A stretch of 64,000 nucleotides of DNA from Clostridia bacterium (lineage in GTDB: Bacteria; Bacillota; Clostridia; Christensenellales; CAG-138): the NCBI GenBank assembly GCA_017538255.1, contig JAFYJD010000025.1:131573-195572 (forward strand), in the 5' to 3' direction. Shown here piece by piece: positions 17,142-24,623 of the stretch; the first letter of the stretch is position 1, and every line of letters begins with the position of its first letter. Below the pieces are notes generated by a model. It was given only the letters and a program-made list of their open reading frames with translations, made no database searches and had not been told where the DNA came from. A program made the position numbers and the translations under genes.

Positions 17142-18803
<1,662 letters not shown>

Positions 18804-19088
18804 TTATTCAACGACCGCGAGTATGTCGCTCTGGCGAACGATGATGTACTCCGTACCGTCGAGTTTGACTTCGTTGCCCGCGTACTTGGAATAGATGACC
18901 TTATCGCCGCGTTTGACGGTCATTTTTACCTCTTTGCCGTCAACAAGACCGCCGGGGCCGACTTCGACGACTTCCGCCATCTGCGGCTTTTCCTTGGCGT
19001 TGCCGGTAAGAATGAGGCCGCTCTTTGTGGTCTCTTCGACCTCGCAGGTCTTGATAACAACTCTGTCGAATAAAGGCCTGATTTTCAT
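18804..19088 (-). CDS. groES: co-chaperonin GroES
   Basis: Track ORF trimmed to MKIRPLFDRVVIK at 19088 (RBS AAGGAGG). 94 aa. Confidence 0.95.
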   Translation of the reverse strand: MKIRPLFDRVVIKTCEVEETTKSGLILTGNAKEKPQMAEVVEVGPGGLVDGKEVKMTVKRGDKVIYSKYAGNEVKLDGTEYIIVRQSDILAVVE

Positions 19089-19169
19089 ATTGGTGTTTCC
19101 TCCTTGAGTTTGACTTTGCGAAGCGCAGGGGCATCCCCGCCGCACGCAATATTATTACCGATAATTGGT

Positions 19170-19197
19170 ATTATATCCCGAGCGAAGAATATGTCAA
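19170..19197 (-). promoter_or_regulatory. sigma-A promoter for groES-groEL
   Basis: The minus strand reads TTGACA-16 nt-TATAAT, about 80 nt upstream of the groES ATG. Confidence 0.6.
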
Positions 19198-19248
19198 GCA
19201 ATGTGCCGAAGTGTTAAAAAATATATCTCGGTTTTTTGCACTTTTTTG

Positions 19249-19277
19249 TTGCAATCCGCTTTCCGATGCTATATAAT
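19249..19277 (+). promoter_or_regulatory. sigma-A promoter for the leader peptide and ABC exporter operon
   Basis: TTGCAA-17 nt-TATAAT on the plus strand. Confidence 0.6.
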
Positions 19278-19314
19278 GCTACCGATAAAACTATAAGGAA
19301 GGAGGTCCGCACAA

Positions 19315-19410
19315 ATGAACAATACTTTTTCTCTTGAATTCGCACCCTGTGCATTCGTATGCCCGTTTTCCCTGCGCGCGACCTCTTTCGGAGCCGTCCT
19401 CATCTTCTGA
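19315..19410 (+). CDS. putative 31-aa leader peptide (MNNTFSLEFAPCAFVCPFSLRATSFGAVLIF)
   Basis: Too short for the ORF track. Very strong RBS AAGGAAGGAGG 9 nt before the ATG. It lies between a consensus promoter and a terminator hairpin, upstream of the ABC exporter genes. Confidence 0.5.
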   Translation: MNNTFSLEFAPCAFVCPFSLRATSFGAVLIF

Positions 19411-19436
19411 TGCGCTCCCCTTCCGTCCGAACCGAT

Positions 19437-19470
19437 GAGCCGCAGGCGTCGCCGCGGCTCTTAATTTTTT
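19437..19470 (+). terminator. intrinsic terminator / attenuator in the ABC exporter leader
   Basis: Stem gagccgc/gcggctc (19437-19443 / 19454-19460) followed by TTAATTTTTT, 36 nt before ATG 19507. Confidence 0.6.
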
Positions 19471-19506
19471 GCTGAAAAAAGTCCCCCCCTCGGGGCAAGA
19501 GGTAAT

Positions 19507-21387
19507 ATGGAAACCACAATTAAAACGGTCAACAAATCCACGAAGGCCGAAAAGAAACTTATACGAAAACAGAAGTGGAAACTCGTGCGCGAGTTCAGCC
19601 GCGGTACCAAACTGCATTTTTTGCTTGGTATAGTCGGTATCATCGCCGCCATCATATCGCAGTACCTTATCCCTCTCATCACGAGTTTTACGATAGACTA
19701 TGTATTAAAGGATTTTGCCGACGTCAACTACTCCGGCAGCATAGTTCTTGCGCCATGGATCGAAAACCTGATCTCACTGCTCGGCGGCAAAGAGTTTTTG
19801 ATCCGGCATTTTTACATTATGGCGCTTGCGCTGATACTGATGAATGCATTGAACGCATTTGCTGTCTACATAAGGCGCAGCCGCGTTGCAATGGGCTCCG
19901 AAACGCTTGCGTACAATATGCGCACGCGCCTTTACGCGCATCTTGCAAATCTGCCATACGATTATCACAAGCATATCTCAACCGGCGACATAATCCAGCG
20001 CTGCACATCTGATGTCGATACGATCAGGCGCTTTGTGCAGAATCAACTTCTTGAGATGTCCCGCACGATAATGATGATAATCATTGCATCGTACATAATG
20101 TTTTCGATGAATACGACGCTCGCGCTCGCTTCGATCGTTATGATGCCGTTTCTCGCACTCGCGTCCTTCCTGTACTGCCGCGGCGTAAAGAAGCATTTTG
20201 CCCTGTCAGACGAGGCCGAGGGCGCGCTGAGCGCGGTAATTCAAGAGAACGTCACCGGCGTTCGCGTTGTACGGGCGTTCGGTCAGCAGCGTTCGGAACT
20301 CGATACATTCAACGAAAAGAACGACGATTATATTAAAAAATCCATTAAACTGAGCGACATTATGGCGCTGTTTTGGGGGTTTTCGGATATGTTTGGCTAT
20401 ATCCAGATCGCCATAAGCCTCTGCGTCGGCGTTTACTTCGTGCTAAATGGACGTATATCCGTCGGAGAGATGCTCGTCTTTTCATCCTACACCTCGATGC
20501 TCGTATGGCCCGTACGTCAGCTCGGACGCATACTTGCCGACCTTGAAAAGGCGGGCGTTTCGCTCGGCAGGCTCAATGAGATACTTGTTGAGCCCGTTGA
20601 AAAGGAACCCGGAAAAGCGCTCAAGCCCGAGATCCTCGGCAGCGTTGAGTTCCGCGGCGTTGGCTTTGGATACGAGGACGGACAGGACGTATTGAAAGAT
20701 ATCTCGTTTACCGCAAACAGCGGTGAAACGGTCGCTATACTCGGCTCCACCGGCTCCGGCAAGTCAAGTCTTGTTCAACTCTTACAGGGACTCTATACCC
20801 CGCGCGAGGGTGAAATACTTATCGATGGCGTGAACATAAACGATATCGAGCGCCATCATCTCAGGCGCAATATCGGCATCGTGCTTCAAGAGCCGTTCCT
20901 GTATTCAAGGTCGATAATGGAGAACATCCGCATCGCAAAACCCGATGCGTCCGAAGACGAAGTATACGACGCCGCTGCCGTCGCCTCGATACACGAAGTT
21001 GTTAAGGGCTTTGAAAAGGGCTACGATACCGTCGTCGGAGAAAAGGGCGTGACGCTCTCGGGCGGTCAGAAACAGCGCGTTGCGATCGCCCGTATGCTTA
21101 TGCAGAAAGCGCCGATAATCATACTCGACGACTCGATGAGCGCCGTCGATACCGAAACCGACGCCGCCATCCGCGACGCGCTTTCCGCAAGGCGCGACGG
21201 CTGTACGACGTTCATCATATCGCACAGGATAACTACGCTTTGCCGCGCCGACAAGATAATAGTACTCGAGGGCGGCAGGCTGATACAGATGGGTACGCAC
21301 GACGAACTCATCAACAAAGACGGTCTTTACAAGCGCATCGCCGATATACAGACGCGCAATGAAGACGATACCGAGGAGGTGTCTTAA
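19507..21387 (+). CDS. ABC exporter permease/ATPase fusion, half-transporter carrying the degenerate ATP site
   Basis: Six-TM domain plus NBD. Walker A GSTGSGKSS and signature LSGGQKQR. Walker B is IIILDDSMSAVD, with Asp where the catalytic Glu is expected. Confidence 0.9.
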   Translation: METTIKTVNKSTKAEKKLIRKQKWKLVREFSRGTKLHFLLGIVGIIAAIISQYLIPLITSFTIDYVLKDFADVNYSGSIVLAPWIENLISLLGGKEFLIRHFYIMALALILMNALNAFAVYIRRSRVAMGSETLAYNMRTRLYAHLANLPYDYHKHISTGDIIQRCTSDVDTIRRFVQNQLLEMSRTIMMIIIASYIMFSMNTTLALASIVMMPFLALASFLYCRGVKKHFALSDEAEGALSAVIQENVTGVRVVRAFGQQRSELDTFNEKNDDYIKKSIKLSDIMALFWGFSDMFGYIQIAISLCVGVYFVLNGRISVGEMLVFSSYTSMLVWPVRQLGRILADLEKAGVSLGRLNEILVEPVEKEPGKALKPEILGSVEFRGVGFGYEDGQDVLKDISFTANSGETVAILGSTGSGKSSLVQLLQGLYTPREGEILIDGVNINDIERHHLRRNIGIVLQEPFLYSRSIMENIRIAKPDASEDEVYDAAAVASIHEVVKGFEKGYDTVVGEKGVTLSGGQKQRVAIARMLMQKAPIIILDDSMSAVDTETDAAIRDALSARRDGCTTFIISHRITTLCRADKIIVLEGGRLIQMGTHDELINKDGLYKRIADIQTRNEDDTEEVS

Positions 21388-21389
21388 TA

Positions 21390-23252
21390 ATGGAAGAATT
21401 CGATTCCGATATCCTTTTGGAAGAGGAAAAAAGCAAAAAAATAGATTGGAAACTTTGGAAAACGCTGTTTAAATACGCGTGGCGGCATAAGTTTATGTTC
21501 GTGCTGATCTGTGTATTCAACGTATTCGTCGCACTCGGCGATATTATCTATCCCCAGCTTACGCGCTACGCGATCGACAATATCATCGCAAATGGCGCGG
21601 CGGAAGGCACGGGCAAGATAATACCGTTTGCGTTTATGTACTTTGCGGTCATCGTGTTTCAGTTCTTATGCGTCATCGGGTTCATACTGTTTTGCGGCAG
21701 GCTCGAGTTCCGAATGAGTTATGATCTGCGGCAGGATTCGTTCAAAAAACTTCAGCAGCTGTCGTTCTCATACTACGACAAGACCGCCGCGGGTCATATA
21801 ATGGCCAATATGGTCAGCGATATCCCCCGCCTTTCCGAAATGGTCGCGTGGAGCGCCACGGGCATATTTTGGATCGTCGGTATGATCGTATTCAGCGTCG
21901 TTATGCTTATCGCAATGAACTGGAAACTCGGGCTCATCGTACTTATGATAATGCCCGTATTGACCGCCGTCAGCGTATACTTCCAAAGGCGCATCCTTGC
22001 TCAGCAGAGGATCGTGCGCAAGCAGAACTCAAAGATCACCGGCGCGTTCAACGAGGGCATAATGGGCGCGGTTACCACAAAAACGCTCGTTCGCGAGGAG
22101 CGCAATTTTGAAGAGTTCAAGCACGAGGCGACGACGATGAAGCGCGCTTCGATCAAATCGGCGGCACTTTCCGCTATGTTTACGCCGATAGTTATGACGC
22201 TCGGCTCCCTTGCGACCGCAATTGCGCTCTATGCCGGCGGAAGAACGGTAATAGCGCCGACGATACTCGGAACGACGATGACGATAGGCGTGCTTTCATC
22301 GTTCCTGTCGTACACTACCTCGCTGTTCGATCCCCTTATGGACCTTGCGGGCATACTTGCGGAGATGCAGAGCGCGCAGGCCTGCGCGGAGCGCGTCATA
22401 TCCCTGCTCAATGCAAAGAGCGATATCGTCGATACCCACGATGTCATCGAAAAATACGGCGACTGCTTCGCCCCGAAGCGCGAAAACTGGGAAGAACTGC
22501 TCGGCGACGTCGATTTTTGCGATGTGTCGTTTGCTTACAAAGAGGGTGAAAAAGTGCTTAAGGATTTCAACCTTTCCGTAAAGCGCGGCGAGAAGATCGC
22601 CCTCGTCGGCGAAACCGGCGCAGGCAAGAGTACGATAGTCAACCTTGTATGCAGGTTCTATGAGCCCACCGCCGGCCGGATACTTATAGACGGCACCGAC
22701 TACCGCGAGCGCAGTCAGTTGTGGCTTCAGGATCGGCTTGGGTATGTGCTTCAATCGCCGCATCTATTCTCCGGCAGCATAAGGGACAATATCCGCTACG
22801 GACGCAAGGACGCGACCGACGATGAAGTAGTTGCCGCCGCCAAACTCGTACACGCGGACGAGTTCATATCGGGGCTTGAAAAGGGCTACGATACCGAGGT
22901 CGGCGAAGGCGGCGCAAGACTTTCGACAGGGCAGAAGCAGCTTATCAGTTTTGCCCGCGTCATCCTTGCCGACCCGCGCATATTCGTGCTTGACGAAGCC
23001 ACAAGTTCGATAGATACCGAAACCGAGGCGCTTATTCAGAGCGCTATCGGCGAGGTATTGAAGAACAGAACGAGTTTTATCGTCGCGCACCGCCTTTCCA
23101 CGATACGCTCCGCCGACAGGATACTCGTTATCCGCGGCGGCAGGATAACCGAGATGGGCACTCACCGCGAACTTATGAAACTCGGCGGGTATTATCACGA
23201 CCTGTACACCACGCAGTTTGCCAATAACAGCACGGAAAAACTGCTTGCATAA
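21390..23252 (+). CDS. ABC exporter permease/ATPase fusion, half-transporter carrying the consensus ATP site
   Basis: Walker A GETGAGKST and Walker B IFVLDEATSSID (Glu present). The signature is the non-canonical LSTGQKQL. It starts 2 nt after the upstream stop. Confidence 0.9.
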   Translation: MEEFDSDILLEEEKSKKIDWKLWKTLFKYAWRHKFMFVLICVFNVFVALGDIIYPQLTRYAIDNIIANGAAEGTGKIIPFAFMYFAVIVFQFLCVIGFILFCGRLEFRMSYDLRQDSFKKLQQLSFSYYDKTAAGHIMANMVSDIPRLSEMVAWSATGIFWIVGMIVFSVVMLIAMNWKLGLIVLMIMPVLTAVSVYFQRRILAQQRIVRKQNSKITGAFNEGIMGAVTTKTLVREERNFEEFKHEATTMKRASIKSAALSAMFTPIVMTLGSLATAIALYAGGRTVIAPTILGTTMTIGVLSSFLSYTTSLFDPLMDLAGILAEMQSAQACAERVISLLNAKSDIVDTHDVIEKYGDCFAPKRENWEELLGDVDFCDVSFAYKEGEKVLKDFNLSVKRGEKIALVGETGAGKSTIVNLVCRFYEPTAGRILIDGTDYRERSQLWLQDRLGYVLQSPHLFSGSIRDNIRYGRKDATDDEVVAAAKLVHADEFISGLEKGYDTEVGEGGARLSTGQKQLISFARVILADPRIFVLDEATSSIDTETEALIQSAIGEVLKNRTSFIVAHRLSTIRSADRILVIRGGRITEMGTHRELMKLGGYYHDLYTTQFANNSTEKLLA

Positions 23253-23276: not shown

Positions 23277-24623
23277 ATGCGCGATCTGCCCGCACCGTTT
23301 TCAGAACGAATGAAGCGCCTGCTCGGGAACGAGTTTGACGCGTTTATCGACAGTTTTTCGGAGCCACCCGTTCGCGGCATACGGATCAACACGCTTAAGA
23401 TAACAAAAGAGCGTTTTACCGCGCTCTGTCCTTGGCGTACCGAGCAGGCGGAAACGCTTGAAGAGGGGCTCGTGCTTTTGGACGAAGCGGAGCATATCGG
23501 CCTCCACCCCTACCACGCAGCGGGACTTTTCTATGTTCAGGAACCGTCCGCGATGAGCGTTATCGCCGCCGCGGACGTCGCCCCCGGAATGCGCGTTCTT
23601 GACCTCTGCGCGGCGCCCGGCGGCAAATCGGGCGGGCTCGCAGCAAGGCTCAACGGCGAAGGGCTGCTTGTTTCCAATGAGATCGTCAAAAAGCGCGCCG
23701 TACAACTTGCGCGCAATCTCGAACGCCTCGGCGTTGTTAACTCGATCGTATCCTGCGCACATCCCGACGCGATCGCGGGCGCGCTCGGCGGGTATTTTGA
23801 CAGGGTCATCGTGGATGCGCCCTGTTCGGGTGAAGGTATGTTCCGCAAGGACGAAACGGCGATCGACGAATGGTCGCCTGAACATATTGCCGCCTGCGCC
23901 GTGCGCCAGAGCGCAATCCTCGACAGCGCCGCGAACTGCGTTATTCAAGGCGGCAAACTTATTTATTCGACCTGCACCTTTTCCGAGGAGGAAAACGAGC
24001 GCACGGTCGAAGCGTTTATCAAGCGGCATCCCGAGTTTGAACTCGAGTTCGCGCACAGGCTCTATCCGCACCGGCTGAAGGGCGAAGGGCATTTTGTTGC
24101 GCGGCTCGTTAAACGCGGTGATCCCGCCTCCCCCGCTATCGCGCCCGCCAAATCAAAACCCTGTGCAAAACGCTGCACGAAGTCCGAGGAGGTGTTGGCG
24201 CTCGAGTTTTTGGAGCCTGTCTTTGGTTTTCAAGCGGTCGAGGCCGTGCGCGGCAAGCTGATGACAATGAACGGCCGCGCGTATTATCTGCCGTTTGCCG
24301 CGCCCGACGCCGCGCTGTCCCTGCCGATCGTATCCTTAGGCGTTGAGGTCGGCGAATTTGCGGGAAATAGATTCAAGCCTTCGCATTCGCTGTTTATGGC
24401 CGCGCATTCGTTTAAGAGTAAATTTGCGCTTGAACTGGGGCTGAACAGCCCCGAACTTGCCGCATATCTGCGCGGCGAAACTGTCATTTGCCCGGATATT
24501 GCACAAATGAAGGGGTATTGCCCCGTAACCATCGACGGCTTCCCCATAGGTTTTGCGAAGATCGTCGACGGCGTTGCGAAGAATCATCTTCCAAAGGGGC
24601 TTACCGTGAACAGGATCTGTTAA
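23277..24623 (+). CDS. RsmF/RsmB-like rRNA cytosine-C5 methyltransferase (NOL1/NOP2/Sun family)
   Basis: SAM motif DLCAAPGGKS and catalytic Cys motifs DAPCSGEGMFRKD and YSTCT. C-terminal extension. Confidence 0.85.
   Translation: MRDLPAPFSERMKRLLGNEFDAFIDSFSEPPVRGIRINTLKITKERFTALCPWRTEQAETLEEGLVLLDEAEHIGLHPYHAAGLFYVQEPSAMSVIAAADVAPGMRVLDLCAAPGGKSGGLAARLNGEGLLVSNEIVKKRAVQLARNLERLGVVNSIVSCAHPDAIAGALGGYFDRVIVDAPCSGEGMFRKDETAIDEWSPEHIAACAVRQSAILDSAANCVIQGGKLIYSTCTFSEEENERTVEAFIKRHPEFELEFAHRLYPHRLKGEGHFVARLVKRGDPASPAIAPAKSKPCAKRCTKSEEVLALEFLEPVFGFQAVEAVRGKLMTMNGRAYYLPFAAPDAALSLPIVSLGVEVGEFAGNRFKPSHSLFMAAHSFKSKFALELGLNSPELAAYLRGETVICPDIAQMKGYCPVTIDGFPIGFAKIVDGVAKNHLPKGLTVNRIC

Follow-up and report, generated by a model that had tools for sequence, protein, structure and literature searches.

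Organization of the exporter locus and its leader

The subject of this study is a short leader in a 64,000-nucleotide stretch of contig JAFYJD010000025.1 from a Clostridia bacterium (the window, by which we mean the whole of this stretch), where it precedes two genes for subunits of an ATP-binding cassette (ABC) exporter, ABC1 and ABC2. A preliminary description had proposed that the leader controls the exporter by attenuation of the kind found in the bmrB-bmrCD system of Bacillus subtilis, and had listed a promoter, a ribosome-binding site, a leader open reading frame (ORF), a terminator hairpin and the ribosome-binding site and start codon of the first ABC gene as its parts. All five elements were found in the sequence 19249-19510, at the positions originally given except for the ribosome-binding site of the leader ORF, which lies at 19295-19305, two bases to the left of the site that had been implied. 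Our comparative and folding analyses suggest that the leader probably acts as a ribosome-dependent transcription attenuator in which the Shine-Dalgarno (SD) sequence of the leader ORF is itself one strand of the regulatory RNA structure.

All features described here lie on the plus strand unless stated otherwise. The sole promoter-like site that a promoter scan located upstream of ABC1 on this strand is a sigma-70-type sequence, TTGCAA-17-TATAAT (19249-19277; 10 of 12 in the scan), with TTGCAA at 19249-19254 and TATAAT at 19272-19277, which would place the transcription start site near 19284. It is followed by a strong SD sequence, AAGGAAGGAGG (19295-19305, with GGAGG at 19301-19305 and then a 9-nt spacer), and by a leader ORF of 31 codons that extends from an ATG at 19315 to a TGA at 19408-19410 (19315-19410) and encodes the peptide MNNTFSLEFAPCAFVCPFSLRATSFGAVLIF. 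Further downstream lies an intrinsic terminator hairpin, GAGCCGCAGGCGTCGCCGCGGCTC (19437-19460), with a folding energy of -16.9 kcal/mol and a U-tract, TTAATTTTTT (UUAAUUUUUU; 19461-19470), at which the attenuated transcript is predicted to end, such that termination would occur near 19466-19470. A simple terminator scan missed this hairpin, owing to the length of its loop and its interrupted U-run. ABC1 starts with an ATG at 19507, 36 nt after the terminator run, and the promoter scan detected no promoter-like site in the 46-nt gap (19461-19506) before this start codon.

ABC1 (19507-21387; 626 amino acids) and ABC2 (21390-23252) each combine a transmembrane domain with a nucleotide-binding domain, as judged from matches to the Pfam families ABC_membrane and ABC_tran and from their sequence motifs. 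The Walker B motif of ABC1 is IIILDD, indicative of a degenerate site, and ABC2 has a canonical Walker B motif (IFVLDE) together with a deviant signature motif (LSTGQ). By these motifs, the two proteins are a heterodimer with one degenerate ATP site. Among solved bacterial structures, the closest to the two subunits are TmrAB, BmrCD, TM287/288 and EfrCD and, for ABC1 in particular, TmrB and BmrC. BmrC and BmrD were matched at expectation (E) values of about 1e-94 and 1e-91, respectively. Because TmrAB scores slightly better, orthology of the exporter with BmrCD is not established from these comparisons, and no NCBIfam model reached its equivalog cut-off for either subunit.

Conservation and distribution of the leader

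A search for ABC1 in 60 related genomes yielded 30 loci, and in about 20 of them the same leader layout is found just upstream of the orthologous exporter. Four of the 30 loci lack a leader, another gene standing immediately before the exporter there. A covariance model of the two helices described below, R1, was used for all genome searches. It is biased towards the window's genus and misses the divergent leaders L016, L020, L023 and L028. R1 matched exactly once in the window's own genome and likewise once in each of 37 of the 151 family genomes searched (15 of 50 genera); across the order, it was found in 6 of 151 genomes. Among 19 new matches, 14 immediately precede an ABC1 orthologue that has their orientation, two are genuine leaders at contig ends and three weak ones are false or doubtful. 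Altogether, the leader unit is known in about 40 relatives, with one copy per genome, a recurrence that exceeds what chance would produce. Its hosts are uncultured rumen and gut Clostridia represented by metagenome-assembled genomes (MAGs), some of them labelled Christensenellaceae, from ruminant and human guts. A MAG labelled Anaerolineae likewise contains an unambiguous copy, situated in front of an exporter with 42% identity.

The preliminary description had suggested examining the leader ORF at homologous loci, and its SD sequence, start codon and open frame are indeed kept in the leaders upstream of the exporter. In a set of 35 leaders, the SD sequence AAAGGAGG is nearly invariant, with the consensus AAAGGAGG(U/C)CGCA in the relatives, and the start codon, located 7-12 nt downstream, is ATG in nearly all cases and GTG in one. 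The ORF has a length of 20-39 codons (median 30) and always crosses a conserved anti-SD segment, which forms the 3' strand of a helix termed P1 (see below); its stop codon is located 3-26 nt past this strand. The terminator, in turn, is kept 17-58 nt after the leader stop codon (median 26 nt, which is also the distance in the window); for the roughly 20 loci of the initial search, this distance was 16-59 nt. An equivalent promoter is present in most relatives, with its -10 element ending 19-23 nt before GGAG.

After dereplication to 34 leaders, frame 0 proved to be open from the start codon to the end of the P1 segment in every case, as compared with 8 and 12 of the 34 leaders for the other two frames. 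The encoded peptides are unrelated except between close relatives and are not conserved even within a genus, and the peptide in the window matched no Pfam family. For the anti-SD nucleotides, the reading frame is 2 in 14 leaders, 1 in another 14 and 0 in 7, giving rise to ...RATS..., ...RP... or ...CGL.... In view of this variability, the peptide was rejected as the functional product. Because the frame is open in all leaders, the peptides are unrelated and the anti-SD segment is read in three frames, the comparison indicates that selection acts on the passage of ribosomes and on the RNA sequence, not on the peptide. A second overlapping ORF, starting from an internal ATG at 19359 and running through the terminator, was also considered and rejected, as it has no SD sequence and is, by eye, not conserved in the relatives.

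In L011 (844-1036) and L012 (843-1037), from two genomes of the window's genus, about 470 nt separate the leader from the ABC start codon; at most other loci, this distance is 22-110 nt. Two units of similar appearance were noted elsewhere. One of them, a weak R1 match (L059, 1501-1672, minus strand), consists of a 33-codon hydrophobic ORF and a terminator in front of a transporter resembling the major facilitator superfamily. The other, in an Anaeroplasmataceae MAG (L075, about 780-990), has an AT-rich leader ORF and a terminator and precedes an ABC exporter with 42% identity. In an Oscillospiraceae MAG (L074, about 790-900), the leader of an exporter with 43% identity is of a different type, with extended inverted repeats (TTACTTTAATCCGTTACCGTGAAACGGTTAAAGTAA...) and without any evident leader ORF.

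Competing RNA structures in the leader

In the model that we derive from folding and comparison, the leader would comprise four competing segments: region 1, the SD region (19298-19313); region 2, the 3' third of the ORF (19371-19389); region 3, the 5' arm of the terminator (19437-19447); and region 4, its 3' arm. Pairing of regions 1 and 2 would form P1, the anti-antiterminator, pairing of regions 2 and 3 the antiterminator, and pairing of regions 3 and 4 the terminator.

P1 is the long-range helix of the leader, closed around about 60-90 nt. In the minimum-free-energy structure of the window, positions 19298-19310 pair with 19376-19389, and positions 19312-19313 with 19373-19374, so that the SD region (19298-19313) provides the 5' strand and the anti-SD segment GCGCGACCUCUUUC (19376-19389), in the last third of the leader ORF, the 3' strand. 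The energy of this duplex in the window ranges from -22.7 to -24.2 kcal/mol. Plain MAFFT aligns the SD sequence and the terminator and fails to align the anti-SD region. In a 36-row alignment, 86.5% of the P1 cells are paired, as opposed to 33-49% in slid controls, and changes on both sides are observed in six of nine base pairs, one of them occurring as C-G in 15, U-A in 8 and U-G in 8 leaders and another as C-G in 21 and U-A in 10. An alignment-free comparison of cognate with non-cognate duplexes gave a z-score of -9.9 for P1. For the terminator, both-side changes were found in 9 of 10 pairs.

Mutually exclusive structures, which the preliminary description had proposed to look for by folding, were identified in the form of a pairing between positions 19371-19379 and 19439-19446 that co-evolves across species. 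The 5' strand of this antiterminator (region 2, CCUGCG.GC) overlaps the 3' strand of P1, and its 3' strand, GCCGCAGG, lies inside the 5' arm of the terminator; the duplex in the window has an energy of -14.2 kcal/mol. The register of the antiterminator differs between lineages, which makes column-wise covariation analysis impossible, and the alignment-free test was therefore used. Cognate duplexes of regions 2 and 3 have a mean energy of -14.9 kcal/mol, compared with -12.5 kcal/mol for non-cognate ones (z = -5.4), and none of 10000 permutations gave a value as low. The control pairings 1:3, 1:4 and 2:4 showed no significant effect in the same test. Upstream, the sequence that pairs best with the terminator 5' arm is located at the 3' end of the ORF; it shares positions with the P1 3' strand in 26 of the 34 dereplicated leaders and is at most 10 nt away from that strand in 30 of them. 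Compensated antiterminator pairs include AGUGCAGU/ACUGCACU, UUGUGCAGC/GCUGCACAA, CGUGCGGC/GCCGCACG, CUGUGAC/GUCACAG and GUGCGCC/GGCGCAC. Here, changes in the SD-side strand go along with changes in the terminator 5' arm, as region 2 is the partner that both have to match. Averaged over the 34 leaders, the energies of P1, the antiterminator and the terminator are -19.2, -15.3 and -17.5 kcal/mol, respectively.

The competition between these structures was modelled by folding the nascent RNA up to the terminator loop, i.e. with the transcript cut before the terminator 3' arm, and by scoring how probable the pairs specific to P1 and to the antiterminator are. These scores replaced a cruder measure, the pairing of the terminator arm with anything upstream, which was noisy. 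In the window, P1 has a probability of 0.98 and the antiterminator one of 0.00 when no ribosome is present (mean antiterminator probability over the 34 leaders, 0.25). A ribosome placed on the SD sequence and start codon abolishes P1 (0) and raises the antiterminator to 0.94 (mean 0.61). With the ribosome at codon 9, the values are 0.98 and 0.00 (mean 0.31) and, with the ribosome at the stop codon, 0.93 and 0.04 (mean 0.17). In silico, the covarying helix P1 thus behaves as an anti-antiterminator that depends on the position of the ribosome.

Promoter region and neighboring genes

The next gene after ABC2, beginning 24 nt downstream, encodes an RsmF-like 16S rRNA 5-methylcytosine (m5C) methyltransferase (23277-24623), recognized by Pfam and NCBIfam matches below the equivalog cut-off. 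An rsmF-like gene occupies this position in six of six genomes of the same genus and in none of four genomes from other genera. In this genus, it probably closes the regulated operon and would be co-transcribed with the exporter genes, in which case an rRNA methyltransferase acting at the decoding center would share the translation-stress switch of the exporter.

Between the leader terminator and the SD sequence of ABC1 (19465-19497), two small hairpins can be discerned. One of them, UUUUUU-GCUG-AAAAAA, is made with the U-tract of the terminator. The other, CCCC-UC-GGGG, is located just before AAGAGG and appeared terminator-like in a scan of the minus strand.

A palindromic AATATAT motif (19220-19226) lies about 22 nt upstream of the -35 element. 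It recurs at positions -68 to -105 relative to the leader SD sequence in 27 of the 34 dereplicated leaders, including eight loci without a groES neighbor. Equivalents of the form AATATAT(T) are seen in L018, L043, L047, L057 and others, with some loci carrying two copies 19-21 nt apart. The motif is possibly an upstream promoter (UP) element or the operator of some regulator and, if so, would add control at the promoter level; its membership of the unit is uncertain.

In the window, the divergent upstream neighbor of the leader is groES-groEL, and the same is true of 20 of the 34 leaders. The relative L018 carries an element resembling the controlling inverted repeat of chaperone expression (CIRCE), TTAGCACTC-N9-GAGTGCTAA, before groES; none was seen before groES of the window in the stretch read (19089-19200). 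A search of the region 18500-20000 against Rfam with cmscan (E<=10) returned two chance-level matches only, both of them outside the leader, and a search against a plasmid collection gave no match.

Discussion

The most probable explanation of these findings is that the leader constitutes a ribosome-dependent, leader ORF-based transcription attenuator of the ABC1-ABC2 operon, which in this genus probably also governs rsmF; we hold this view with considerable, if not full, confidence. The computations show the elements and their conservation, the covariation of P1 and the terminator, the co-evolution of the antiterminator and the in-silico switch, whereas actual termination, read-through upon stalling, the site of the stall and the identity of the inducer and of the pump substrate are predictions. 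According to the proposed mechanism, transcription would begin near 19284, with the strong SD sequence and the ATG emerging first. If the leader carries no ribosome, P1 would sequester region 2 and mask the SD sequence. If, instead, a ribosome has already passed region 2 and reached the stop codon 3-26 nt beyond P1, the outcome would be the same: in both situations, region 3 would be left free, the terminator would form and RNA polymerase would halt near 19466-19470. Conversely, a ribosome that stays at the SD sequence and start codon, or within the first few codons, while the polymerase synthesizes regions 2 and 3 would occupy region 1, thereby enabling regions 2 and 3 to pair, preventing terminator formation and permitting transcription of the exporter genes. 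The signal sensed would accordingly be impaired translation initiation or early elongation, and plausible inducers are drugs that bind the peptidyl transferase center and arrest ribosomes at start codons, such as lincosamides, pleuromutilins and streptogramin A, as shown for vmlR of B. subtilis. Because P1 contains the SD sequence of the leader ORF, re-initiation should stop once the leader RNA is complete, and the read-out may thus be provided by the first, co-transcriptionally loaded ribosome.

Several observations weigh against this interpretation or narrow its basis. When the full leader was folded at equilibrium with a 27-28-nt ribosome footprint set at every codon, the terminator formed with a probability of more than 0.8 at almost every imposed ribosome position. 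The terminator also wins at equilibrium in other attenuators, and its predominance here means that the decision must be kinetic. In the nascent-RNA model, the antiterminator shows no rise with the ribosome at the start codon in 13 of the 34 leaders, and in 8 of the 34 the terminator arm finds its best partner outside P1. Taken alone, the antiterminator of the window (6+2 bp) is no better than shuffled GC-rich sequence (z = -0.16); support for this pairing comes from the level of the family. A conserved arrest motif was not found in the leader peptides. The weak R1 matches, with E values above about 1e-6, include false ones (L051, L056 and L059). Finally, the folding model takes no account of sterics, so that a ribosome stalled in the middle of the ORF might also block P1, which makes the stall position the least certain step of the model.

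A different or even opposite trigger of a ribosome-dependent attenuator was also considered, such as arrest near the end of the ORF or on the stop codon, general uncoupling of transcription and translation, or effects of (p)ppGpp or NusG. The confined spacing of the stop codon, 3-26 nt to P1 and 17-58 nt to the terminator, suggests that it may matter where the terminating ribosome stands, and L015, L038, L047 and L023 show high modelled antiterminator values when the ribosome is placed at the stop codon. Furthermore, the B. subtilis vmlR leader is known to integrate NusG-dependent pausing and (p)ppGpp (Takada et al., 2022; PMC9226507). In most leaders, however, a ribosome at the stop codon covers region 2, as reflected in the mean antiterminator probability of 0.17 compared with 0.61 at the start codon, and the stop codon is so far upstream that the terminator stem would be out of reach of a terminating ribosome. 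We regard a trigger of this kind as unlikely.

An alternative in which the ORF is incidental or secondary and P1 closes the binding domain of a riboswitch or a protein-bound RNA, which then chooses between terminator and antiterminator, appears distinctly improbable. It would account for the long range of P1, whose enclosed 60-90 nt resemble the situation in aptamer closing stems, and for a TATGCC-like motif that, by eye, recurs within P1 in several leaders. Yet, the interior of P1 varies in sequence and length to the extent that MAFFT fails there, with a mean column identity of 33%, and the leader has no Rfam match even at the permissive threshold applied. In addition, a ligand-binding RNA would need neither an SD sequence nor a start codon at fixed spacing nor an open frame, all of which are kept in every leader. 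About equally improbable is a stand-alone gene for a small protein (a membrane peptide, toxin or pump substrate) with its own promoter and terminator, from which leaky, unregulated read-through would supply the exporter: the peptides are indeed short and rather hydrophobic or Cys-rich, and the terminator is strong and always formed at equilibrium, but peptides of 20-39 codons that lack a Pfam match, are not conserved within a genus and are encoded by conserved nucleotides read in all three frames do not fit this notion, which also leaves the co-evolution of P1 and the antiterminator without a role and the exporter, always located downstream of the unit, without a promoter of its own.

Attenuation that depends on the translation of an upstream ORF (uORF) is well documented in B. 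subtilis, where it controls bmrCD, vmlR, tlrB and ytbDE (PMC13689557). In the case of bmrB, a 54-codon ORF contains all three structures (terminator, antiterminator and anti-antiterminator), and ribosome-targeting antibiotics induce a read-through for which the leader has to be translated (Reilman et al., 2014; PMC4191407). What our leader has in common with bmrB is the succession of a leader ORF close to the promoter, an intrinsic terminator and the genes of a heterodimeric ABC exporter in which one ATP site is degenerate. It differs in the length of its ORF (31 codons), in the 26 nt that separate the end of this ORF from the terminator, and in that the SD sequence of the leader is part of the anti-antiterminator. 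Since the terminator is located outside the ORF, the leader is, judging from its layout, not a bmrB homologue. The bmrB-bmrCD-like attenuation put forward in the preliminary description is thus upheld as far as it concerned a leader ORF and terminator attenuating a heterodimeric exporter, as the unit is conserved and its mutually exclusive pairing co-evolves, whereas the anatomy of bmrB does not apply.

The vmlR leader represents the closest described logic and design. Its uORF, comprising three codons (MIN), is situated in an anti-antiterminator hairpin, and arrest of initiation by lincomycin or retapamulin keeps the base of this hairpin from forming; variants of the uORF are functional, indicating that no specific nascent peptide is needed (Takada et al., 2022; PMC9226507). 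Both leaders feature an anti-antiterminator hairpin around the start of the uORF, an antiterminator and an intrinsic terminator, although the structures of our leader are modelled from sequence. In vmlR, a ribosome at the uORF start blocks the base of the anti-antiterminator, whereupon the antiterminator forms and transcription reads through, and the in-silico folding predicts the same course for our leader. Both also appear to control a resistance-type ABC protein without the need for a specific nascent peptide. By contrast, the uORF of vmlR consists of three codons, whereas the ORF described here, with 20-39 codons, takes in the entire loop of the anti-antiterminator together with its 3' strand. 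The SD sequence of vmlR is single-stranded upstream of the hairpin SL-1, and that of our leader forms the 5' strand of the helix. Furthermore, VmlR is a ribosome-protection factor of the ABCF type, and the product controlled here is a heterodimeric membrane exporter of the ABCB type. None of the tests run detected a sequence relationship to the vmlR or bmrB leaders, and no Rfam match to a vmlR leader family was obtained.

The arrangement also recalls attenuators of the trp type. The trp attenuator of Escherichia coli has four segments that engage in 1:2, 2:3 and 3:4 pairings, and its signal is the scarcity of charged tRNA at specific codons. Our leader likewise appears to have four segments and a leader stop codon ahead of the terminator, with absent or completed translation predicted to cause termination and a ribosome on segment 1 predicted to cause read-through. 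It differs in having no conserved regulatory codons and in that segment 1 is the SD and start region itself. Leader-peptide attenuators of the trp type have been summarized previously (PMC4191407).

Taken together, the comparisons point to a well-supported, uncatalogued case of a known kind of switch. The kind of switch as such is known, but it is not catalogued for this lineage. Rather than a new principle, the leader would offer one more solution, in which the SD sequence of the leader ORF serves as a sensor of ribosome occupancy. A more far-reaching proposal, which we advance tentatively and as possible rather than probable, is that the leaders form an uncatalogued, family-wide class of attenuators in uncultured rumen and gut Clostridia (with the Anaerolineae-labelled MAG as an outlier), that the uORF SD sequence as a strand of the anti-antiterminator turns them into single-round sensors, which would read the first ribosome, then silence their own translation and be tuned to drugs or conditions causing initiation arrest, and that the ABCB-type exporter and RsmF are joined in one translation-stress operon in the genus of the window.

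As a compact, sequence-defined sensor, the leader could be of practical use, since the R1 model and about 40 natural variants may serve to annotate similar switches, and the variants could help to test which classes of inhibitors stall ribosomes at which positions. Lincosamides, pleuromutilins and macrolides are in use in such host animals. If our interpretation is correct, widespread uncultured rumen and gut Clostridia would carry an efflux pump that remains silent until translation is disturbed, and resistome surveys based on gene catalogues would not mark such a pump as inducible.

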